From: a virus
Taxonomy: Duplodnaviria; Heunggongvirae; Uroviricota; Caudoviricetes
Length of the DNA stretch: 34,029 nucleotides
IMG/VR virus record: IMGVR_UViG_649989947_000025
Reading direction: 5' to 3' (one strand)
Shown here one piece after another: positions 2,621 through 34,029 of this stretch (positions within the stretch are counted from its first letter, which is position 1; every line of letters starts with the position of its first letter). The position numbers and the translations under genes are program-made. The notes below the pieces were generated by a model. It saw only the letters and a list, made by a program, of their open reading frames with translations, was not told the origin of the DNA and searched no databases.

Positions 2621-2732
2621 AACTGAAGTTGCCCTGAAAATGAAATTTTTATGCACAACCGCAGAACTTTTCCGCAGGGCATCAGTCTTAATTAGTGCCA
2701 CTGCTTTTCTTTGATGTCCCCATTTTGTGGAG

Positions 2733-2775
2733 CCCATCAACCCCGCCATTTCGGTTCAAGGTTGATGGGTTTTTT
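2733..2775 (+). terminator. hairpin plus T-tract downstream of ybjL; host/prophage junction region
   Basis: cccatcaacc ... ggttgatggg followed by tttttt. Confidence 0.4.
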
Positions 2776-2855
2776 GTTGCCTGAAATTTAAGCTGTTTAA
2801 AATCATGATGTTAGAAACACTGTTTTTTAACGATGGCGACAAAATGGCGGCAGCG

Positions 2856-10137: not shown

Positions 10138-10704
10138 TCAGGGGGATTCATTGCTCTTATTTGCCGGAAATTTTCTATAAATGGTAGAAACGCCTACATC
10201 AAAAATCAGTGCAATACACTGTCTTGATTCTCCGGCCTCGAGTAAACGCCCAATCTGTGCCCACTGTTCGGTGGTCAACTTAGGACGGCGTCCACCTACT
10301 CTGCCTTTGGCACGAGCTGCAGCCAGCCCTGCCATGGTACGTTCAACTATCAGTTCGCGTTCCATTTCAGCCAGGGCCCCCATGACATGAAAAAAGAAAC
10401 GGCCCATTGGGGTGCTGGTATCAATACTGTCAGTCAGGCTTCGGAAATTCACGCCACGCTGACGCAACTCTTCTATCAGCGTAACAAGATGCCGCATACT
10501 GCGCCCCAACCTGTCCAGCTTCCAGACAACCAGAGTGTCTCCTGCCGATAGTGTCCTGAGCAGTTTTTTAAGCCCCGGTCTGTCGGACTTAGTGCCACTG
10601 ATTTTATCCTCAAAAATCCGCTCACATCCCGCGCAGTTCAGTGCATTACGTTGCAAATCGGTGTTCTGGTCATTTGTTGACACGCGTACATAGCCAATAA
10701 GCAT
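10138..10704 (-). CDS. serine DNA invertase, Hin/Gin/Pin/Cin family
   Basis: MLIGYVRVSTNDQNTDLQ...LVVWKLDRLGRSM...GRFFFHVMGALAEMERELI, near-identical to Gin/Pin over the catalytic domain; longest ORF extends to 10749. Confidence 0.9.
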   Translation of the reverse strand: MLIGYVRVSTNDQNTDLQRNALNCAGCERIFEDKISGTKSDRPGLKKLLRTLSAGDTLVVWKLDRLGRSMRHLVTLIEELRQRGVNFRSLTDSIDTSTPMGRFFFHVMGALAEMERELIVERTMAGLAAARAKGRVGGRRPKLTTEQWAQIGRLLEAGESRQCIALIFDVGVSTIYRKFPANKSNESP

Positions 10705-10748
10705 GATCAATCCCCTGAATAAAAACCGTGGATGATGCCAGTTAGCCA

Positions 10749-11147
10749 TTATCTCTGCATTTTCATAAACGTACGTTTAGCATAACGTATCTGTGGCCCC
10801 TTACGGCTGACGCGATCACGCAAGCCGTAATGGTGAACACGGGCAATGCGCTGTACCTTACCTTCAAACTGCACGCTGGCAGAGTCGGCGCTGGCGGCAG
10901 TTTTCAGGTATTTTGTGGTGCGAAGTTTTGTAAACATCTGCCGTTTGATACGGCCTTTTTTACTGCGTGCTGTTACTCGCCTCGGTTCATAGCTGCTGCC
11001 ATCAGGATTGCGTTGCATCCTGATGTTCTGCTGCTGTGTCCGGCGCAGTTCCTGCGCCAGCTGGCGCATCATGCGGCTTCTTGCGGCTGGCTCCAGATTC
11101 GCCAGCAAGGCACTCAGCCAGTCGTCCACCTTCTGCAGTTCAGCCAC
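10749..11147 (-). CDS. S: tail completion / virion morphogenesis protein gpS
   Basis: 132 aa, follows R as in P2. Confidence 0.7.
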   Translation of the reverse strand: MAELQKVDDWLSALLANLEPAARSRMMRQLAQELRRTQQQNIRMQRNPDGSSYEPRRVTARSKKGRIKRQMFTKLRTTKYLKTAASADSASVQFEGKVQRIARVHHYGLRDRVSRKGPQIRYAKRTFMKMQR

Positions 11148-16650: not shown

Positions 16651-18417
16651 ATGAACACCACACTGACACCCGCAGATCTCGATCCCCGTCGGCAGGCCAT
16701 GCTGCTGTACTTTCAGGGATACCGCGTCGCCCGCATTGCTGAAATGCTGGGCGAGAAAGTTGCAACCGTTCACAGCTGGAAAAAACGCGACAAGTGGGGT
16801 GACTATGGGCCGCTGGATCAGATGCAGCTCACCACCGCCGCACGCTACTGTCAGCTCATTATGAAGGAGCACAAAGAAGGGAAAGATTTCAAAGAGATTG
16901 ACCTGCTGGCGCGCCAGTCGGAGCGCCATGCGCGGATCGGCAAGTTTAACAATGGCGGCAACGAAGCCGACTTAAACCCTAACGTCGCCAACCGCAACAA
17001 AGGCCCGCGCCGTCAGCCGGAAAAGAACGTTTTCACCGATGAACAGATTGAGAAGCTGGAAGAAATCTTCCATTCCTCCATGTTCAACTACCAGCGCCAC
17101 TGGTGGGAAGCCGGAAAAACCAACCGCATCCGCAACCTGCTGAAGTCACGCCAGATCGGCGCGACCTTCTATTTTGCCCGTGAAGCCCTGATTGACGCCC
17201 TGCTAACCGGGCGTAACCAGATTTTCCTTTCCGCCAGCAAGGCTCAGGCCCACGTCTTTAAGCAGTACATCATCGACTTCGCCAAAGAAGTGGAGGTGGA
17301 GCTGAAAGGCGATCCGATGGTGCTTCCTAACGGGGCCACACTGTACTTCCTCGGCACCAATGCCCGCACGGCCCAGAGTTACCACGGCAACCTGTATCTG
17401 GATGAATATTTCTGGATACCGAAATTCCAGGAGCTGCGCAAAGTGGCTTCCGGTATGGCTATTCACAAAAAATGGCGACAAACCTATTTTTCCACGCCAT
17501 CCAGCCTGACACACAGTGCTTATCCGTTCTGGTCCGGTGCGCTGTTTAACCGTGGGCGCAACAAAGCCGATAAGGTGGACATCGACCTGTCCCACAACAA
17601 TCTGGCCCCCGGCCTGCTGTGCGCAGACGGGCAATACCGCCAGATAGTCACCGTGGAAGATGCGGTGCGCGGCGGCTGTAACCTGTTCGACCTCGACCAG
17701 CTACGCATGGAGTACAGCCCGGACGAATACCAGAACCTGCTGATGTGCGAGTTCGTGGACGATCTCGCGTCCGTGTTCCCGCTCAGCGAACTGCAGGCGT
17801 GCATGGTGGACAGTTGGGAAGTCTGGACCGACTTTCATGCACTGGCCCTGCGCCCGTTTGGCTGGCGCGAGGTGTGGATCGGTTATGACCCGGCAAAAGG
17901 TACGCAGAACGGCGACAGCGCCGGATGCGTGGTGGTGGCACCGCCAGCCGTGCCAGGCGGTAAGTTTCGCATTCTTGAGCGTCACCAGTGGCGCGGGATG
18001 GACTTCCGCGCCCAGGCTGATGCAATCAAAAAACTGACCGAGCAGTACAACGTGACCTATATCGGCATCGACTCGACAGGCGTCGGTCACGGGGTTTATG
18101 AGAACGTGAAAGCGTTCTTTCCTGCCGTCCGGGAGTTTGTCTACAACCCCAACGTTAAAAACGCTCTGGTACTCAAGGCCTACGACATTATCAGCCACCG
18201 CCGTCTGGAGTTTGACGCCGGACACACCGACATAGCGCAGTCATTTATGGCAATCCGTCGCGCCACCACCGCCAGTGGCAACCGCCCGACCTATGAAGCC
18301 AGCCGCAGCGAAGAAGCCAGCCACGCCGATCTGGCCTGGGCAACAATGCACGCACTGTTTAACGAACCACTGCAGGGCGAGTCCGCCAATACCAGTAATA
18401 TTGTGGAGATTTTTTGA
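16651..18417 (+). CDS. P: terminase large (ATPase) subunit gpP
   Basis: 588 aa, size and position. Confidence 0.85.
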   Translation: MNTTLTPADLDPRRQAMLLYFQGYRVARIAEMLGEKVATVHSWKKRDKWGDYGPLDQMQLTTAARYCQLIMKEHKEGKDFKEIDLLARQSERHARIGKFNNGGNEADLNPNVANRNKGPRRQPEKNVFTDEQIEKLEEIFHSSMFNYQRHWWEAGKTNRIRNLLKSRQIGATFYFAREALIDALLTGRNQIFLSASKAQAHVFKQYIIDFAKEVEVELKGDPMVLPNGATLYFLGTNARTAQSYHGNLYLDEYFWIPKFQELRKVASGMAIHKKWRQTYFSTPSSLTHSAYPFWSGALFNRGRNKADKVDIDLSHNNLAPGLLCADGQYRQIVTVEDAVRGGCNLFDLDQLRMEYSPDEYQNLLMCEFVDDLASVFPLSELQACMVDSWEVWTDFHALALRPFGWREVWIGYDPAKGTQNGDSAGCVVVAPPAVPGGKFRILERHQWRGMDFRAQADAIKKLTEQYNVTYIGIDSTGVGHGVYENVKAFFPAVREFVYNPNVKNALVLKAYDIISHRRLEFDAGHTDIAQSFMAIRRATTASGNRPTYEASRSEEASHADLAWATMHALFNEPLQGESANTSNIVEIF

Positions 18418-19442
18418 TGGGAAAGAGTAAAAAAAACCGCGTAGCGGCGATGAATCAGATCCAGCATAAAAGCCAGACTTCAGCCGAAGCATTCAGCTTC
18501 GGCGATCCCGTTCCTGTTCTGGACCGCCGTGAACTGCTGGACTATGTGGAATGCGTACAGACAGATCGATGGTATGAGCCGCCAGTGAGTTTTGACGGGC
18601 TGGCGCGCACCTTTCGCGCCGCCGTGCATCACAGCTCACCGATTGCGGTGAAATGCAATATTCTGACCAGTACCTACATCCCTCACCCGCTGCTCAGCCA
18701 GCAGGCTTTTTCACGTTTTGTGCAGGACTATCTGGTATTTGGTAACGCCTACCTGGAGAAACGCACGAACCGCTTCGGTGAAGTTATCGCCCTTGAGCCT
18801 GCTCTGGCAAAATACACCCGACGCGGGTTAGACCTGGATACCTACTGGTTTGTGCAATACGGTATGACAACCCAGCCGTATCAGTTCACGAAAGGCAGCA
18901 TTTTTCATCTGATGGAACCGGACATCAACCAGGAGATCTACGGCCTGCCAGGTTATCTTTCTGCCATTCCGTCAGCCCTGCTCAACGAGTCCGCCACGCT
19001 GTTCCGCCGGAAGTATTACATTAACGGCAGTCATGCAGGCTTCATCATGTACATGACCGATGCCGCGCAGAACCAGGAGGATGTGAACAACCTCCGCAAT
19101 GCGATGAAAAGCGCCAAAGGCCCTGGCAACTTCCGCAACCTGTTTATGTACTCGCCTAACGGCAAAAAGGACGGGCTTCAGATCATCCCGTTGTCAGAAG
19201 TCGCGGCGAAGGATGAATTTCTTAACATCAAGAACGTGAGTCGGGATGACATGATGGCAGCGCATCGTGTGCCGCCACAAATGATGGGGATAATGCCTAA
19301 TAATGTTGGGGGATTTGGGGATGTAGAAAAAGCTAGTAAGGTATTTGTGAAAAATGAATTATTACCATTACAAAAAAGAATGAAAGAATTTAATCATTGG
19401 AGCGGTGAAGAAATTATAAAATTCGAGAGATATCAAATTTAG
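18414..19442 (+). CDS. Q: portal protein gpQ (last ~50 codons AT-rich)
   Basis: 342 aa, ATGA overlap with the P stop; 3' end shows a composition shift. Confidence 0.85.
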   Translation: MMGKSKKNRVAAMNQIQHKSQTSAEAFSFGDPVPVLDRRELLDYVECVQTDRWYEPPVSFDGLARTFRAAVHHSSPIAVKCNILTSTYIPHPLLSQQAFSRFVQDYLVFGNAYLEKRTNRFGEVIALEPALAKYTRRGLDLDTYWFVQYGMTTQPYQFTKGSIFHLMEPDINQEIYGLPGYLSAIPSALLNESATLFRRKYYINGSHAGFIMYMTDAAQNQEDVNNLRNAMKSAKGPGNFRNLFMYSPNGKKDGLQIIPLSEVAAKDEFLNIKNVSRDDMMAAHRVPPQMMGIMPNNVGGFGDVEKASKVFVKNELLPLQKRMKEFNHWSGEEIIKFERYQI

Positions 19443-19448
19443 CAAAGT

Positions 19449-19463
19449 GCCTCTAAAAGAGGC
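19449..19463. terminator. short hairpin between convergent Q and the DprA-like gene
   Basis: gcctct-aaa-agaggc stem-loop. Confidence 0.35.
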
Positions 19464-19466
19464 GCT

Positions 19467-20441
19467 TTAAATCAAGTCTAATGTACTCTGTTTCCCTGGC
19501 CATTTTAGCTCTAACAAATACTCCCGGGACTCATTTATGATCATAATCACATCATCATAATCCCGTTTTGTTTTTAGCGCTCTAGCCATGTTGCTCTTAA
19601 CTAAATCAACTGTTCCCTCACAATTAAGATTAAGCGGATTATTAGGTAGGTGAGGTACAACCGCAAACACTGGTCTTTTCGCCTTATTTGCAAACTCAGC
19701 TTGAGTTATCGTTCCGCTATTTAACGCAGCCTCGATTAAAATTGAACCTGCAGATAATCCAACTTGTATCCGATTTCTTTGTACAAATGATTGTTTCTGG
19801 GCCGGCCGACCCATAGGATACTCAGAAATCCATGCACCACCTTTATCCAGAATCTCTTGAGCAAGTCGACTGTTTTGCTTCGGCTTAGCCTCCTCAAGAC
19901 CATGCGCCAAGACAGCAATGGTTTTTCCTTTTGCCTGTAACGTTGCCTTGTGGGCATTCGCATCAGTGCCTATTGCTAACCCACTTACAACAATATACCC
20001 AGCAGACACTATCTGATTAGTGATCCGCCTCGTTATTTCTTCCCCTGCAGGGGAGGTATCACGGGATCCTACAATTGCGACACCCGGCAATTCTTTGAGT
20101 ATACTTTTATCCCCTTTTATGTAGAGAATTGATGGTGGATTAGGAGTAAAAGCTAAACTAAGAGGATAGAATTCAGACCCATATGGTATTAGCTCCACAC
20201 CATTAACATGGTGGTTCTCCAATTCAGCGTTCGCTATTAGAAAATCAGTCTCAGATATTTTATCTTTTAGAAACCCGTGGCTATTAACCATCTCAGTTAA
20301 GTCGCGTATATCACGAATAACATCAAAATCGATAAGCTCAAAGAATTTTAATACACTTTGATCAGATGCTAGCTTCCCGATTTGAATAGCTAATCCAAGT
20401 GTATTTTTTAATTCTTCTGAGTGCACTTTGCTACTCCTCAT
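19467..20441 (-). CDS. DprA/Smf-like (SLOG Rossmann-fold) protein, ShosA-like partner of the upstream PRTase
   Basis: AIVGSRDTS ... VVSGLAIGTDANAHKATL ... TIAVLAHGLE motifs; 11-nt overlap with the upstream gene; AT-rich. Confidence 0.7.
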   Translation of the reverse strand: MRSSKVHSEELKNTLGLAIQIGKLASDQSVLKFFELIDFDVIRDIRDLTEMVNSHGFLKDKISETDFLIANAELENHHVNGVELIPYGSEFYPLSLAFTPNPPSILYIKGDKSILKELPGVAIVGSRDTSPAGEEITRRITNQIVSAGYIVVSGLAIGTDANAHKATLQAKGKTIAVLAHGLEEAKPKQNSRLAQEILDKGGAWISEYPMGRPAQKQSFVQRNRIQVGLSAGSILIEAALNSGTITQAEFANKAKRPVFAVVPHLPNNPLNLNCEGTVDLVKSNMARALKTKRDYDDVIMIINESREYLLELKWPGKQSTLDLI

Positions 20442-21006
20442 AGTTTGCAGTTTCTAGCAGAGCTAATGGCATTATAACTCCAGCTCCTGCAGACTCCAGT
20501 AAATAAAAACACGCAGACAAACTACCGCCTGTTGTTTTAACATCATCTAGTAGTAACACATTTCGCCCCATGAGGTTACCACCCCTAACTCTGATACTAG
20601 ACATGTGACCAGTAATTGAGCGATCTCCTCCTTCACGATGTGCGCTAGGAACAGTGCGTGTTCTTTCCAAACAGCAATCAACAATGCCCCGACGGTGAAC
20701 ATTTACGATTCGCTCGGCGACCTCAATCAAAGCCGGTGAAATTCTGCCTTCAGTGTGAGACGGGACAACTGCTATCGAAAAAGGAGACTCAACAAAACGC
20801 CCACCGCCACCTCTGATTACTAACCGCCCAACCTTATCTATAGCTAATCGAGAAAAACGGTTAATGGCCCTTTGATGATTACGATTATTTTCATCCTTAA
20901 AATCCATCATCTGCCTTGATAGTTCATCGCTATGAGGGTTGCGCTCTCCCAAATGCCAGTAGGGGTGATACAAGCCACACGATGTAATACTTACGGGTAA
21001 AAGCAT
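20431..21006 (-). CDS. phosphoribosyltransferase-domain protein, ShosT-like candidate toxin/effector
   Basis: PRTase PRPP-binding signature VLLLDDVKTTGGSL; first gene of a two-gene operon; AT-rich. Confidence 0.7.
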   Translation of the reverse strand: MLLPVSITSCGLYHPYWHLGERNPHSDELSRQMMDFKDENNRNHQRAINRFSRLAIDKVGRLVIRGGGGRFVESPFSIAVVPSHTEGRISPALIEVAERIVNVHRRGIVDCCLERTRTVPSAHREGGDRSITGHMSSIRVRGGNLMGRNVLLLDDVKTTGGSLSACFYLLESAGAGVIMPLALLETANYEE

Positions 21007-21130
21007 TCTTTATTCTCATGTAGTCCTAACTCAAACAATGTTAAGCGAAATGATATTTCATAGACAAACACAAATTTAAGAATAATCTCAATGATCACAT
21101 TTTTGATTATGAAACAAAGCCAAGAGTTAG

Positions 21131-21165
21131 CGCGCGCTCGTATCCCCGCCACGCCTGCCCGCTTT
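21131..21165 (-). other. candidate cos site (cohesive-end region)
   Basis: minus strand reads GGCGTGGCGGGGATACGAGCGCGCGCT, resembling the P2/186 cohesive-end start recalled from memory; correct position and orientation relative to Q. Confidence 0.45.
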
Positions 21166-21534
21166 ATGCAGTGGTTTTCATGCACATGCATGACATGAGC
21201 AAAAGCCCGCCAGTTCTGGCGGATCTGAGCAAAGACGATCCTCAATCGATCATGCGATTTCATGCAGCATAGTCATGCACTGTCAAGGAAGTGAAAATCC
21301 GTATCTGAATGGCCACTTGAAAAACGGATCATACGGGTTTACAAAGATGAATGTTCGCTGTGAACGGGAAGCGGAAGTTAGCTTTCAGATAACATAATCC
21401 ATATGCACGAGAACCTCTAAAATAGAATGGGACACCTAAGCGGGGTACTTACAACGATTCTTTCCATATTCACAGTTAACACTCTGTTTGGCGTATTTTT
21501 ATTCAAATAGCAAACACCAATAAAAGGAGTTTCC

Positions 21535-21870
21535 ATGAACAATATTCCCCCTATACCACAGTTAGGAATTTATGTCTCAAAAATCGATCCCACCCTACGT
21601 ATCACTGTAACCGATGTTGATATTGTTGATGGTGAGGATGATTCTCCTGATGATGAATTGTTTTATTTAGTCCACTGGATCGAGGGGGAAGATGAAAGTG
21701 ATATGACAGCAATGGGATTTGAGCTAGACCCAGTAGAGTGGCAGGCTTTCGTTGAATCTGAGCAATTAGTGTTTGAGCGTGATCCGTACATGGATTCAAT
21801 CCCCGAAAATTCAAACTTGGCAAAGATTCGGGATTTTCTCATGAAGACTAAACAGAATGATCATTCGTAA
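21535..21870 (+). CDS. hypothetical highly acidic small protein
   Basis: 111 aa, about 26 Asp/Glu vs 7 Lys/Arg; strong SD AAAAGGAG 6 nt before ATG; AT-rich. Confidence 0.6.
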   Translation: MNNIPPIPQLGIYVSKIDPTLRITVTDVDIVDGEDDSPDDELFYLVHWIEGEDESDMTAMGFELDPVEWQAFVESEQLVFERDPYMDSIPENSNLAKIRDFLMKTKQNDHS

Positions 21871-22649: not shown

Positions 22650-22883
22650 TTAATACAGGTTCCGCCACTTATCATCTTCCTGCAAACGCTGGTTCCGATA
22701 GAAGATACGCAGGCCAGCTCCTGACGGAATACTGCCGCCGCGAAGGAGTAAATCGACCTCTTTCTCGCTGCCATCAAATCCTCTGGATTTCAGTTCATAG
22801 ACGAGCTGCTGTCGTTGATGGTCTGTAATTCGCTGTTTGTAGTCTCTACGCCGTTTCGGTTTCACCAGACGTAACCTTGCAGC
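22650..22883 (-). pseudogene. A: displaced 3' fragment of replication gene A (about 76 codons) separated by the IS insertion
   Basis: reading frame is continuous with the A ORF once the IS and one target-duplication copy are removed. Confidence 0.65.
22879..22883. repeat. 5-bp target site duplication GCAGC (left copy)
   Basis: identical 5-mer directly abuts both IS ends. Confidence 0.75.
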
Positions 22884-27019
<4,136 letters not shown>

Positions 27020-27023
<4 letters not shown>

Positions 27024-27877
27024 ACACGCACCTCGTACACAGCAGAACTATCCACGCCACGCGAAGGATCAAATCCCACCCAGCAGCGCGCCCCGGAAAC
27101 AGCAATGATTTCTGTTGCAGATTTACTCTCGCCAGCCGACACGCCGATGCTGCGTTTTGCCTTGATGTAGTGGTGAGTGAAATTGCGATACAGCGAACGA
27201 ATCAGGGATGTGTCACTGTTAGAAACAATGACCGGATGACCTTCAGATGATCGATGTTCAAGAACGGATGCCAGGTGATACTGGTCATCCTCAGTGAAGC
27301 CATCAGTGTGATAGCCGGAAAACGTACCGTCATAAGGCGGATCGCAATACACCACATCCCCCGCCTTCAACATCGCCAGCGTTTCATCAAAGCTGGCGCA
27401 GATAAACGTTGCTCGCTGGGCTTTTTCTGCAAATTTGCGAATTTCTTTTTCAGGGAAATACGGATTTTTATAATTCCCGTAGGGAATGTTGAAATGCCCG
27501 CTCTTGTTATAGCGACATAACCCACGGTAACCATGACGATTGAGATACAGGAAATATACCGCTTTCATGAAATCAGTAATTTCAGTGGAGTAATTAAACT
27601 CCTGCCTTATGTTGTAATAAGCCACCTCCCTGTTTGCTTCCTCAAATAAAGCTCTGGCACGAGATATAAACGCCTCGCAATCAGCAGCAACCTTTTTATA
27701 GAGGTTGATTAAATCAGGATTAATATCCGCAACAAGATAGCTGGGGTAATCCGTCTCTATCATCACAGCACAAGAACCCGCGAAAGGTTCAACCAGTCGC
27801 GGGCCAGCAGGAAGGTATTTTTTCAGTTCTGGCATAATGGCGGTTTTATTACCCGCCCATTTCAGGATGGTGCTCAT
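27020..27877 (-). CDS. DNA adenine methyltransferase (Dam family)
   Basis: [12 protein letters not shown]-terminus and DPPY catalytic motif (VYCDPPYDG); start at internal Met. Confidence 0.85.
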
Positions 27878-28101
27878 ACAGCACCTCCGTTGTAATGTTT
27901 GCCTTTCAGCTCTGCGATTTCCTGACAGGTAATGCAAAGCTGCACACCCGGAATGGCGCGACGTCGTGCTGGCGGAATTGGTGCTTCACACTCAATGCAA
28001 AGCACGCGGGATACGCCCGGCGTTTTGGCGCGGGCAGCACGGATATGACGCTGGCGTTCTTCTTCAACGCGCTGCTGTACGAGATCCATTGCATCAGCCA
28101 T
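27874..28101 (-). CDS. TraR/DksA-family C4 zinc-finger protein
   Basis: CIECEAPIP...CITCQ four-Cys motif, 75 aa. Confidence 0.7.
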   Translation of the reverse strand: MADAMDLVQQRVEEERQRHIRAARAKTPGVSRVLCIECEAPIPPARRRAIPGVQLCITCQEIAELKGKHYNGGAV

Positions 28102-29797: not shown

Positions 29798-30373
29798 GTG
29801 ACCATGAATTTGGAGAAAGGCGGACGAGGCGCTATAGAGCGCATGGTAGAAGCATATGGCTTCAAGACTCGACAGGCGTTGTGCGATCACTTAGGAATCT
29901 CTAAAAGTACTCTCGCCACACGCTATATGCGTGACTCATTCCCTGCTGAATGGGTAATCCAGTGCGCACTTGAAACGGGCGCCTCGCTTAACTGGCTCAC
30001 GACCGGACATGGTTCAAAGCAAACTTCAGGTAATACAAATACTATGGAAGTCGTTAAATATGTATTATCTGATGGAACCTTGCAGGAAGATGGTTTTTAT
30101 ATTTTCGATAAAGAATTTCTACCATCTACGCTCAAAAATCCGTTTGTAATCACCGATAACAATTCCGTTTTTATTTGCGATAAAGAGTTTAACGATATTC
30201 GTGACGGCAAATGGGTAATAAGTATTGATGCCGAAGTAACAATCCGCGATATCACTCGTTTACCTGGTGGAAGAATCTTAGTTGAAGGTGGAAATAGGGC
30301 TTTCGAATGTAAAAAAGAAGAAATCGAAATTATTGGAAAAATTATAAGCATAACAGTTAAGTACTTTGAGTAA
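29798..30373 (+). CDS. cI: CI-type immunity repressor (186 CI-like)
   Basis: 191 aa, N-terminal CI-type HTH (KTRQALCDHLGISKSTLATRYMRD) plus C-terminal oligomerisation domain; position next to the switch. Confidence 0.8.
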   Translation: MTMNLEKGGRGAIERMVEAYGFKTRQALCDHLGISKSTLATRYMRDSFPAEWVIQCALETGASLNWLTTGHGSKQTSGNTNTMEVVKYVLSDGTLQEDGFYIFDKEFLPSTLKNPFVITDNNSVFICDKEFNDIRDGKWVISIDAEVTIRDITRLPGGRILVEGGNRAFECKKEEIEIIGKIISITVKYFE

Positions 30374-30423
30374 TATAGGAATGTTTTTATGCTTGGTAAA
30401 GCATTTGTTGTGGTGTAAAAAAT

Positions 30424-31347
30424 ATGTCAACTCAAAAATTAAAATTTAGCCATATCAAAAACGATCTGAAAGCAATAGTTATGCAGAATCGTGGAGGGCA
30501 AAAAGTTATTGAGCGTATACTCCTAGCCTATGGCTTCAAGTCACGACAGGCATTATGTAATCATCTAGGTATTTCCCAAAGTACTATGGCCAACAGATAT
30601 GCACGTAATACCTTTCCTGCAGATTGGGTTGTTATATGTTCCATAGAAACAGGAGCATCAATTGAATGGTTAGTTCTTGGTTCAGATACTGCTCCTTCAT
30701 CAGAGCAATATTCTGAAAAACATGCCGTTAATGGCCTTTGCAATGAAGTATACATTCCCACTATAAAGTTCGATAATGAAAAACTCATGAATTTTAACCG
30801 AGGGGGTAAGGCAACAATAGAACGAATTGTCGAGGCTTACGGTTACAAAACGCGCCAAGCATTAGCTGATCACCTAGGTATTTCAAAAAGCACATTAGCC
30901 ACACGATACATGCGTGACATTTTTCCTGCAGACTGGGTTTTGCAGTGTGCAATAGAAACGGGCCATTCTATTGAATGGATTTCATTTGGTACAGGAGAAA
31001 TGAAAAACGCAAAAAATAAAGATACTTTAACATTAGTGAAAAAAGTATTAATCAATGGCAAGTTAATAAATGATGGCTCATATTTATTTGACCCATGCTT
31101 TCTACCTTCCAATTTAAAAAATGCATTCGTAGTATCTACCGAAGACTCTGAATTAATATGTGAAATGGGTTTTAAAGATGTACATGATGGTAAGTGGCTA
31201 GTAAATATTGATGGAGAGAATTCATTTAGAATGATAACTCGACTACCTAAAGGACGAGTTTATATTTCATCCCAAAATCACTCTTTTGAATGTTCGCTTA
31301 CAGACATTGAGTTTATTGCAAAAGTTATTATAAGTTGTTTACATTAA
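30424..31347 (+). CDS. CI-repressor paralog with two tandem CI-type HTH domains
   Basis: residues ~24-88 and ~127-190 each repeat the CI HTH; C-terminal ~110 aa align with the C-terminal domain of the upstream CI. Confidence 0.75.
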   Translation: MSTQKLKFSHIKNDLKAIVMQNRGGQKVIERILLAYGFKSRQALCNHLGISQSTMANRYARNTFPADWVVICSIETGASIEWLVLGSDTAPSSEQYSEKHAVNGLCNEVYIPTIKFDNEKLMNFNRGGKATIERIVEAYGYKTRQALADHLGISKSTLATRYMRDIFPADWVLQCAIETGHSIEWISFGTGEMKNAKNKDTLTLVKKVLINGKLINDGSYLFDPCFLPSNLKNAFVVSTEDSELICEMGFKDVHDGKWLVNIDGENSFRMITRLPKGRVYISSQNHSFECSLTDIEFIAKVIISCLH

Positions 31348-31372
31348 GTAAATTTTTCATGGAGACTTCATA

Positions 31373-32890
31373 GTGAAATGTGGTGATTGTAATTGGAACT
31401 GGGATGAAGAAACTACCTTTATATTAGACGACGAAGAGGAAATTCTTTCCAAAGACAAACTTAATCGGAGACACTATGCAGAATATCTATATTTTTATCT
31501 TAAGGAAAAGGGGCAAAAGAACAACACGGTAATCAACCTTAATGCAGAATGGGGAGCTGGTAAAAGTTTTTTCATAAAGAGATTTTATAACTCAATAAAA
31601 GATGCACACCCATGCGTTTACATTGATGCCTGGAAGCAAGACTTTTCTGATGATGCATTTTTAACCCTTTTTTCTTCTTTGTCACAACAATTGCAAACAT
31701 ATGCAGGAAAACTTGATGCTCGATTGATACAAAGCGGCCATGCTATCGGACGCTTTACAAAAGGTGTTCTACCTGAAATCATATCTGGCCTAATCAAGAC
31801 TTATGCAGGAGTAGATAACGTAGGTGATATAGCCAAAGAAGCCTCATTAATAATGCTGAAGGAACACCAGGAAAAACTGAAGAGCATTAAGGTATTAAAA
31901 AAAGAACTAACGTTATGGTCTAGGTTGGCATATGAAAATAGTTTTTCATGTCCTATATTTATCTTTATAGATGAATTAGACAGATGCAGGCCAGATTATG
32001 CAATTTCTCTTTTAGAGATTGTTAAACATATATTCGATATTAAAAATTTTGTCTTTATTATTGCTACTGACACAGATCAATTACAACATTCAATCAAGAA
32101 TGTTTACGGTAATGATTTTTCCGCAAATGACTATTTAGGCCGTTTTTTTCATAGAAGATTTACTTTAAAACAACCTGAACTTAAAGATTTAATTAATGGT
32201 GTTGTTGGTGATTATATTGGTACCGATTTTGAAAATATCACATCAAAAACACACCCACTAACAGCAACATTAGAAGACTTTTCAATAAATATTTCCAACG
32301 TATTTGAAGCATTTGGGTTAAATCTAAGAGACTCAATCCGAAATACTGAAAGGTTAATAGACATTCTTAAATCTGATTTAGTCAAAAAGAAAGTAGATTA
32401 TATTTTTATAATTTCGCTAATGATTATATATGATAAGGAACGTCAAATTATAGATGGACTAATTGGTCGAAGAAATGCAGCACAACGTTTCACTGATTCG
32501 ATAAAGCAAAGCTCCAATTTAAAAGGTGTTTCTCAAGCCATCCTTGAATTAAATCTTGATACAAATCAGCAAAGAATAGGTGTCAATTATATCTATAGAA
32601 CGGCGAGCAGTAGATTATTCATCTCACAGATCGAGCCCAAAATAAATTTAACATTAATAAATTACTTAGATGTTGCATTGTATTTTATTAATAATATAAA
32701 CATGCTTAAATCAAGTATAAAAAACAATGGGCAAAATTCACTAATGATTATATCTCAACAAGGCCCTATTGATGGTGATACAGCTATAAAGTATTTGCAA
32801 GGAGCCCTTATAGAGAATGGTCTGAATACATCTTTTTATGCCTTACATAATTACATTGAATTAATTGAACTGGCCACATCATTTGATTAA
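31373..32890 (+). CDS. KAP-family P-loop NTPase
   Basis: Walker A NAEWGAGKSFF, KAP-type Walker B FIFIDELDRC, 505 aa, GTG start with GGAG SD; very AT-rich. Confidence 0.75.
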   Translation: MKCGDCNWNWDEETTFILDDEEEILSKDKLNRRHYAEYLYFYLKEKGQKNNTVINLNAEWGAGKSFFIKRFYNSIKDAHPCVYIDAWKQDFSDDAFLTLFSSLSQQLQTYAGKLDARLIQSGHAIGRFTKGVLPEIISGLIKTYAGVDNVGDIAKEASLIMLKEHQEKLKSIKVLKKELTLWSRLAYENSFSCPIFIFIDELDRCRPDYAISLLEIVKHIFDIKNFVFIIATDTDQLQHSIKNVYGNDFSANDYLGRFFHRRFTLKQPELKDLINGVVGDYIGTDFENITSKTHPLTATLEDFSINISNVFEAFGLNLRDSIRNTERLIDILKSDLVKKKVDYIFIISLMIIYDKERQIIDGLIGRRNAAQRFTDSIKQSSNLKGVSQAILELNLDTNQQRIGVNYIYRTASSRLFISQIEPKINLTLINYLDVALYFINNINMLKSSIKNNGQNSLMIISQQGPIDGDTAIKYLQGALIENGLNTSFYALHNYIELIELATSFD

Positions 32891-32952
32891 AAGCATTGTT
32901 TGAATAAACTAAACCATACATTGACCACTGGTCAAACATACAGTTAAATTTA

Positions 32953-32976
32953 GCCCTCTGATATGAGGGCTTTATT
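32953..32976 (+). terminator. hairpin plus T-tract ending at the int start codon
   Basis: gccctc-tgatat-gagggc then tttatt, then ATG at 32977. Confidence 0.5.
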
Positions 32977-34029
32977 ATGGCAGTACGAAAACTCACCACA
33001 GGAAAATGGCTTTGCGAATGTTACCCCGCCGGACGTAGTGGGCGTCGTGTGCGTAAACAATTCGCCACCAAAGGCGAAGCACTGGCTTTTGAGCGTCACA
33101 CGATGGAAGAAACCGAAGCAAAGCCCTGGCTGGGTGAATCAGTGGATCGTCGAACACTGAAAGACGTGGTTGAGCTATGGTTCAAACTACATGGTAAATC
33201 TCTGACTGCTGGGCAGCATGTCTATGACAAATTGCTGCTGATGGTTGACGCTCTGGGCAATCCCCTTGCAACTGATCTAACCTCTAAAATGTTTGCCCAC
33301 TATCGAGATAAACGCCTGACAGGTGAGATCTACTTCAGTGAGAAATGGAAGAAAGGAGCAAGCCCGGTCACCATTAACCTGGAGCAAAGCTATCTAAGTA
33401 GTGTTTTTAGCGAACTATCCCGCCTGGGCGAATGGTCGTATCCGAACCCACTGGAGAACATGCGAAAATTCACCATCGCAGAAAAAGAGATGGCATGGCT
33501 TACCCATGAGCAGATTGTTGAATTACTAGCTGATTGCAAACGTCAGGACCCAATTCTGGCACTGGTAGTTAAGATATGCTTAAGCACAGGCGCACGCTGG
33601 CGAGAAGACGTAAATCTTACCCGCTCACAGGTGACCAAATACCGAATTACCTTTGTAAGAGCGAAGGGGAAGAAAAACAGAAGCATCCCTATCAGTAAAG
33701 AGCTTTACGAAGAGATCATGGCGCTTGATGGGTTCAATTTCTTCACAGACTGCTATTTTCAATTTTTATCCGTGATGGAAAAAACGTCTATCGTGCTCCC
33801 TCGCGGTCAACTCACACACGTTCTGCGCCATACGTTTGCGGCGCACTTCATGATGTCGGGTGGAAACATTCTGGCTTTACAAAAAATTCTCGGACACCAC
33901 GATATAAAAATGACTATGCGTTACGCACATCTGGCACCGGATCATCTGGAAACGGCGCTCCGTTTCAATCCTCTGGCAACGCTGCCAAGTGGCGACAAAG
34001 TGGCGGCAGCGGTTGGCATTACCCCGTAA
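32977..34029 (+). CDS. int: tyrosine integrase (P2/186 Int family)
   Basis: 350 aa with RHTFA and HHDIKMTMRYAHL motifs (catalytic R..H..R..Y); stop codon is the last 3 nt of the window. Confidence 0.9.
   Translation: MAVRKLTTGKWLCECYPAGRSGRRVRKQFATKGEALAFERHTMEETEAKPWLGESVDRRTLKDVVELWFKLHGKSLTAGQHVYDKLLLMVDALGNPLATDLTSKMFAHYRDKRLTGEIYFSEKWKKGASPVTINLEQSYLSSVFSELSRLGEWSYPNPLENMRKFTIAEKEMAWLTHEQIVELLADCKRQDPILALVVKICLSTGARWREDVNLTRSQVTKYRITFVRAKGKKNRSIPISKELYEEIMALDGFNFFTDCYFQFLSVMEKTSIVLPRGQLTHVLRHTFAAHFMMSGGNILALQKILGHHDIKMTMRYAHLAPDHLETALRFNPLATLPSGDKVAAAVGITP

Follow-up and report, generated by a model that had tools for sequence, protein, structure and literature searches.

What is the two-gene cassette that separates the portal gene from the cohesive-end (cos) site in a P2/186-like prophage of Escherichia coli? 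The prophage is contained in IMG/VR record IMGVR_UViG_649989947_000025, a stretch of 34,029 nucleotides that is referred to here as the window, and the cassette occupies positions 19,467 to 21,006. A sequence-only reading of the window had proposed that this segment holds two overlapping minus-strand genes, one for a phosphoribosyltransferase (PRTase) and one for a DprA-like protein, together resembling the ShosTA toxin-antitoxin system. Our analysis suggests that the cassette is probably a ShosTA-family type IV toxin-antitoxin and abortive-infection module in a minimal form, carried as prophage cargo.

Both open reading frames (ORFs) were found exactly where they had been placed. The ShosT-like PRTase gene (20431..21006, minus strand) encodes the putative toxin, a minimal, ComF-like type I PRTase of 191 amino acids (aa) with an isoelectric point (pI) of 8.4, and the ShosA-like gene (19467..20441, minus strand) encodes the putative antitoxin, a DprA-family protein of 324 aa; the two ORFs overlap by 11 nt. 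On the left the cassette is bounded by portal gene Q (18414..19442, plus strand; RefSeq "phage portal protein"), which is convergent with the ShosA-like gene and ends 24 nt from its stop codon. On the right, the cohesive-end equivalent was located by aligning the sequence with the cos annotations of phages 186 and P2; it occupies 21137..21155 on the minus strand and reads GGCGTGGCGGGGATACGAG-GCGCGC versus GGCGTGGCGGGGAAAGCAT-TGCGCGC in phage 186. It lies in a conserved block (21125-21281) kept in 47 phage records, P2-like phages among them, and the exact P2 cos 19-mer gave no match even with 3 mismatches allowed. The Q stop at 19442 and this cos homologue thus confirm the proposed location. 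The distance from the Q stop to cos is ~170 nt in P2 and 186 and 1.7 kb here, and the cassette is inserted into the Q-cos interval.

The distribution of the cassette is that of variable cargo. Its GC content, which had been put at about 35%, is actually 42.4% (ShosA-like gene, 40.7%; ShosT-like gene, 45.3%), though still clearly under the 54.2% of the adjacent P and Q genes. Positions 19300-21400 are 100% identical to enteropathogenic E. coli E2348/69, among 1266 E. coli genomes with shared flanks only 22 have the cassette, and nearby cargo varies among otherwise similar prophages. Rfam and repeat scans detected nothing within the cassette. The assignment to a known variable region of P2-like prophages agrees with the literature, in which the cos-proximal gpA-gpQ region of P2-like phages, inside which the cassette occupies the Q-cos interval, is a defense hotspot that yielded a DprA-plus-PRTase system validated against T7 and lambda (PMC9122126).

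A type I PRTase fold was identified in the upstream protein. Its phosphoribosyl pyrophosphate (PRPP)-binding loop, VLLLDDVKTTGG, already noted in the sequence-only reading, spans residues 150-161 (nt 20524-20559, minus strand); in it an acidic pair precedes a phosphate loop rich in T/S and G. The AlphaFold2 model was confident over the entire chain (predicted local distance difference test [pLDDT], 91) and showed a single compact PRTase domain. Foldseek searches with this model placed ShosT (8zvc/8zvd) at the top, with H. pylori ComF next, and also recovered other PRTases; in one further comparison with PDB structures the fold was closest to ComF. A phmmer search of the toxin against PDB sequences returned zero matches. 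In Pfam, the downstream protein matched DNA_processg_A (1.4e-60) and the SLOG family LDcluster4 (8.2e-05), and the toxin matched Pribosyltran at 0.0012 with 18.6 bits, under the 26.3-bit cut-off. The generic PADLOC ShosT model PDLC03962 matched the toxin at 3.7e-14 (profile positions 62-211 of 237). By hhalign, toxin residues 141-188 correspond to residues 321-367 of ShosT from E. coli APEC O1, and D154/D155 align with D331/D332 of the solved ShosT. Across 30 homologues, D155, T158, and G160 were invariant and D154 was conserved in at least 90%.

The downstream protein unambiguously has a DprA fold, as had been read from its Rossmann motifs. It was matched by two PADLOC ShosA models, PDLC03961 (2.8e-70) and PDLC02997 (2.8e-33). 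Its AlphaFold2 model (pLDDT 93) comprises a helical N-domain (residues 4-79), a Rossmann core (82-289), a C-terminal helix (292-310), and a disordered tail. The same layout of N-terminal helical domain, Rossmann core, additional C-terminal helix, and disordered tail is present in the crystal structures of ShosA (PMC12961424). Foldseek matched the model to R. palustris DprA (3maj, 1.8e-20) and, over the full length, to APEC O1 ShosA (8zva, 4e-19, TMt 0.75). The antitoxin is 36% identical to APEC O1 ShosA over 198 aa of the DprA core, and its N-domain is ~28 residues shorter. R127 and R222 are invariant and correspond to R139 and R234 of ShosA, which bind single-stranded DNA (ssDNA). An alternative start of the antitoxin, a GTG at 20426 (codon 6), has a GAGGAG Shine-Dalgarno motif 7 nt upstream and would give a protein of 319 aa. 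Because this motif falls within the last codons of the toxin gene and 319 aa is the length of most antitoxin homologues, the arrangement suggests that translation of the antitoxin may be coupled to that of the toxin.

We compared the cassette with the ShosTA systems of E. coli APEC O1 and KTE181 (structures 8ZVA-8ZVD and 9VZO; Rousset 2022, Millman 2022, Pu 2025, Yang 2026). Operationally, ShosTA is defined by a PADLOC/DefenseFinder-style pair of hidden Markov models, a ShosA match with an adjacent ShosT match, and model-level matches were scored here; at this level the cassette is such a pair (ShosA, 2.8e-70; ShosT, 3.7e-14). The domain pairing that had been named as characteristic of ShosTA is therefore present, in a form that differs from the characterized APEC O1 type. 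Both systems consist of adjacent, co-directional genes for a PRTase toxin and a DprA-like antitoxin, both are cargo of a P2-like prophage, in its gpA-gpQ hotspot near cos, both share the conserved DD pair in the PRPP loop and the ShosA domain layout, and both proteins of each are matched by the same generic PADLOC models. One difference lies in the toxin. The solved ShosT of APEC O1/KTE181 is 424 aa long, with an HAD-like pyrophosphatase at residues 1-164 and a PRTase with long loops at 165-424, whereas the protein encoded here has 191 aa and is a PRTase only, without the N-terminal HAD/pyrophosphatase domain, and so lacks the two-domain architecture.

The position relative to cos also differs. 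The annotated APEC O1 region runs Q, tQ, cos, shosA, shosT, gene A, which places the system on the A side of cos, and the order here is cos, toxin, antitoxin, Q, on the Q side. We considered whether the APEC O1 system occupies the same Q-cos slot and rejected this, since its annotated region is on the other side of cos and has the opposite gene order. The cassette and APEC O1 ShosTA share a hotspot and differ in slot, orientation, and toxin architecture.

Several observations weigh against the ShosTA reading. The similarity between the toxin and ShosT by BLASTP and hhalign is limited to ~45 residues at the PRPP loop, and a profile built from 30 sequences of the toxin family matched the PRPP loop only, giving the solved ShosT a score (E 0.0056) that did not exceed those of housekeeping PRTases. 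PDLC03012, the narrow ShosT model of the APEC type, fits APEC O1 ShosT at 4e-276 and did not match the toxin. The genes are arranged toxin to antitoxin with the 11-nt overlap, whereas APEC O1 has antitoxin to toxin. In the antitoxin, the third ssDNA-binding arginine of ShosA, R261, is replaced by E249, with D or E at this position in 11 of 11 short-type sequences, and the dimer-interface residues L181/F182 of ShosA are Q/A. The antitoxin is equally close to genuine DprA and to ShosA. The AT-rich, 130-nt leader from cos to the toxin start (21007..21136, minus strand) is presumed to be the promoter region, and a sigma-70 scan found no minus-strand promoter in it and no consensus promoter for the cassette; a weak candidate, TTAAAT-N18-TATCAT, was spotted by eye only. 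Synteny, too, counts for less than its numbers imply: among relatives in IMG/VR, a ShosA-like gene was directly downstream of the toxin relative in 27 of 27 loci, and these loci are mostly close relatives and hence non-independent.

Is the 191-aa ORF a gene at all? It could be what is left of a long ShosT after loss of the N-terminal domain, or it could be a non-gene; either would leave the DprA-like gene an orphan. The ORF is missing from RefSeq in 21 of the 22 E. coli genomes that carry the cassette, its Pfam score is below the gathering cut-off, and the corresponding PHROG profile begins only at residue 34. Against this, toxin homologues are uniformly ~190 aa in Citrobacter, Enterobacter, Dickeya, Yersinia, Hafnia, Pectobacterium, Kluyvera, and Shewanella and also in Vibrio and Alteromonas, and an exhaustive profile search recovered 269 clusters (50% identity, E<1e-30), mainly of 180-195 aa. 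Comparison with an 88%-identical orthologue gave a ratio of nonsynonymous to synonymous substitution rates (dN/dS) of 0.04 for each of the two genes and of 0.09 when only the first 33 codons of the toxin were taken. The low dN/dS, including that of the first 33 codons, makes the upstream ATG a better-supported start than the shorter, PHROG-style one. In the same N-terminal part, G11, Y13, and P15 are conserved in at least 90% of homologues, the structural model is confident from end to end, and no HAD-like coding remnant lies 5' of the ORF, where the sequence continues directly into cos. A pseudogene or truncation was rejected on conservation and dN/dS, and the remnant or non-gene explanation as a whole is extremely improbable.

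The short form recurs as a pair in diverse mobile elements. In 10 of 10 sampled members of the short PRTase family the best match was the generic PADLOC ShosT model. In the 27 IMG/VR loci the pair is almost always convergent with a P2-type portal gene. When distant ShosA-like genes (44-57% identity) were taken as the starting point, all three examined were directly preceded by a PRTase of the A1 family. True orthologues of equal length, with 50% and 60% identity, are orf14/orf15 of SopEPhi, an inducible Salmonella phage (AY319521; PHROGs 7188/4299); they are likewise ordered toxin to antitoxin and likewise lie between cos and Q, and they are annotated merely as "unknown." The pair was also found in a Hafnia P4-like satellite, in Mu-like prophages of Shewanella and Aeromonas, in Vibrio, in an Alteromonas island adjoining AAA_15/AAA_21 genes, and on one unassigned contig. 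A cyanobacterial toxin homologue (37% identity, 294 aa) had no Pfam-annotated DprA gene adjoining it, indicating that pairing with DprA is not universal in the wider PRTase family. Judged from the sequences, family size and uniform length, selection, synteny, and the independent contexts identify the short form as a real, coherent, mobile system.

A ComF-like fold next to a DprA fold raises a different explanation, namely a phage-borne DNA-processing module derived from ComFC and DprA. Such a module would handle ssDNA, for example by loading RecA or by protecting or recombining phage or incoming DNA, and would benefit the phage directly, with neither a toxin nor abortive infection. However, ComFC has an N-terminal four-cysteine zinc finger that the toxin lacks; its only cysteines are at positions 10, 111, 112, and 166, a single one of them N-terminal. 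Both proteins are under the curated ComF and DprA cut-offs, in most cases by far: the toxin scored 25.5 bits against the 233.6-bit cut-off of the ComF model TIGR00201, and the antitoxin scored 168.6 against 495 for the E. coli Smf model NF008007 and 186.4 bits, slightly below the cut-off of 191.15, for the DprA equivalog TIGR00732. The PADLOC defense models fit better (3.7e-14 vs 1e-05). In natural transformation, moreover, ComFC and DprA are core genes, whereas the cassette genes are adjacent and accessory, occurring as cargo of unrelated mobile elements and in a defense island, away from replication and recombination genes. We consider the DNA-processing explanation quite improbable.

A related possibility keeps the link to competence and retains a role in immunity. 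Possibly, a ComFC-DprA competence module was exapted to give the short PRTase and DprA-like pair; its PRTase-fold protein would then act on or sense DNA or ssDNA and not free nucleotide pools, and long ShosT would have arisen later by HAD fusion. This is unlikely but not negligible; if true, the mechanism would be unlike the purine-metabolism model for long ShosT, and natural-transformation machinery would be tied to anti-phage immunity. 

Two arrangements in the short family tie it to the HAD-fused long ShosT and count in favor of the ShosTA reading. In Alteromonas macleodii (locus L045, 2823-4960), the short PRTase and DprA-like genes have, immediately upstream, a separate gene for a 172-aa HAD hydrolase, and family member P0179 is a PRTase-HAD fusion with the HAD domain at the C terminus, the reverse of the order in long ShosT. 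These arrangements suggest that an HAD phosphatase is a recurrent, optional, and shuffled accessory of the short PRTase family, and an evolutionary bridge between the short and long ShosT forms through this accessory is plausible.

The cassette was further compared with other defense systems that contain related proteins. PsyrTA/RqlHI also has a DprA-like antitoxin, and PsyrA and PsyrT were the second-best PADLOC matches, weaker than ShosA and ShosT: the PsyrA model matched the antitoxin at 1e-30, and the C-terminal region of PsyrT resembled the toxin at 4.9e-06 (profile positions 577-686). The PsyrT model has 689 positions, of which the toxin aligns with the last ~110 only. Most of the remaining length presumably is the RecQ-like helicase region known from RqlH, which has no counterpart in the toxin; with only 191 aa, the toxin does not contain the RecQ-like helicase of PsyrTA/RqlHI. 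Type III retron effectors and Ophion OpnC, compared from the literature, likewise use a PRTase domain as a defense effector but have other partner genes, none of them a DprA-like antitoxin. A 2025 preprint places defense PRTases, including type III retron effectors and Ophion OpnC, in one clade.

If the cassette is a minimal ShosTA module, how would it work? By homology to ShosTA we infer toxicity, neutralization, a trigger, and a defense phenotype for it (mechanism sources: PMC11961720, PMC12961424, bioRxiv 2022.08.27.505566). The 191-aa PRTase-only toxin would bind PRPP through its conserved DD...TTGG loop and, by analogy with the solved ShosT, would transfer phosphoribosyl to an acceptor and consume PRPP, an activity predicted to disrupt nucleotide metabolism and DNA replication. 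In long ShosT the substitutions D331A/D332A abolish toxicity (PMC11961720; PMC12961424), and a pyrophosphatase-dead ShosT remains toxic, with only a marginal reduction (PMC11961720). Because the latter is barely less toxic, the lack of the pyrophosphatase domain should be no obstacle to toxicity of the short form. The DprA-like antitoxin, as a predicted ssDNA-binding and RecA-associated protein, may offset the damage indirectly without binding the toxin. Release of the pre-made toxin could be triggered in either of two ways: shut-off of host expression by another phage might deplete a labile antitoxin, or ssDNA/SSB intermediates of replication might titrate it. The infected cell would then die or arrest before the invading phage finishes its cycle. 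Phage resistance by abortive infection has been shown for the long APEC O1/KTE181 ShosTA only.

The state of the prophage bears on whom the cassette would serve. Replication gene A, which is intact in the E2348/69 reference (804 aa), is split here by an IS100kyp-type element of the IS21 family (22935-24765) into ORFs at 22650-22934 and 24765-27023; the element encodes IstB (22950-23732, minus strand) and IstA (23729-24751, minus strand), and of the complete E. coli genomes in the collection none shared the junction between gene A and the element. Between 9995 and 11150, the prophage carries a truncated virion-morphogenesis gene S (10749-11147), which abuts a gene for a Hin/Gin-type DNA invertase (10138-10749), followed by the sheath gene. 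The baseplate and tail-fiber genes V, W, J, I, H, and G are missing; E2348/69 has this block, in inverted orientation. The prophage appears to be decaying and non-viable.

An intact cassette under purifying selection inside a degraded prophage is compatible with addiction, in which a genuine toxin-antitoxin pair would stabilize the decaying prophage without meaningful protection against phages. ShosTA is said in later papers to have been described originally, by Kimelman 2012, as a plain toxin-antitoxin system. The pair is nevertheless found in inducible phages such as SopEPhi, where addiction would be needless, and the cassette slots turn over rapidly with other defense genes. Furthermore, both tested relatives protect against phages (PMC9122126; bioRxiv 2022.05.11.491447; PMC11961720). 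Addiction alone is rather improbable as an explanation. A function beneficial to the host fits the finding because the cassette is intact and selected inside a seemingly dead prophage.

Other features of the locus were recorded. An 11-bp hairpin (19444..19468) spans the gap between the convergent stops of Q and the ShosA-like gene and is a candidate bidirectional terminator, with folding energies of -15.5 kcal/mol on the plus strand (z -5.3) and -12.9 on the minus strand (z -3.8); its T tracts are short, and a consensus terminator scan therefore did not call it. The window carries ybjM, ybjL, and RybB at its left, and the integrase closes the prophage at the right. The gene for the small RNA RybB (2700-2778, plus strand; Rfam, 105 bits) is ~380 nt from the end of prophage gpD, and the prophage appears to be integrated beside rybB.

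Additional cargo was observed on the far side of cos and elsewhere. In the classical cargo slot from cos to gene A, positions 21535-21870 (plus strand) encode a 111-aa, very acidic protein (pI 4.05; 26 D/E vs 7 K/R) that matches PHROG 17127 (function unknown) and has no Pfam or PADLOC match. Prophages that are otherwise nearly identical differ in whether they have it, and a role as a DNA mimic or in anti-defense is conceivable. Among prophages with the same cassette, the far side of cos holds a P-loop NTPase gene in E. coli ECCHD184 (L038, 3642-5027) and 1.5-3 kb of other sequence in L007, L008, and L011. Since the far-side cargo differs while the cassette is the same, the two slots flanking cos turn over independently. 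Adjoining gene A, a Dam-like orphan DNA adenine methyltransferase (27020-27937, minus strand; PADLOC oMTase, 3.7e-111) probably serves the prophage in protecting itself against restriction. An island of 29-36% GC (30000-33000), which lies between the CI repressor and the integrase, contains a second, duplicated CI-like repressor gene (30424-31347, plus strand) and a gene for a KAP-family P-loop NTPase (31373-32890, plus strand) that matched the PADLOC candidate system PDC-S20 (5e-78) and PifA (9e-17). This island is probably a second, independent cargo or defense locus.

How visible is the cassette to current annotation? In E2348/69, RefSeq annotates the DprA-like gene and leaves the PRTase ORF unannotated, and the toxin ORF is listed in one of the 22 complete E. 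coli genomes with the cassette, as the "hypothetical protein" WP_001316964.1. In PHROGs both protein families are of "unknown function." Protein-based defense censuses would see only an orphan "DprA" and would under-count the system, because RefSeq omits the toxin ORF in most carrier genomes.

The kind of system is already known. A PRTase and DprA-like pair defines ShosTA, such a system has been validated from the same P2 hotspot, and the generic PADLOC models capture both proteins. The cassette is an expected type of prophage cargo, a stripped-down variant of ShosTA and not a new kind of system; it does not overturn current understanding and is unlikely to surprise a specialist. A literature search found no description of a PRTase-only subtype, of the reversed gene order, or of the Q-side slot. 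If the cassette is what we propose, it would be a natural minimal ShosTA and would demonstrate that ShosT can do without its pyrophosphatase domain. Its 21-kDa toxin would be useful in the search for the phosphoribosyl acceptor, and the recurring ties to ComF, DprA, and HAD phosphatases would outline how this defense family may have been assembled.

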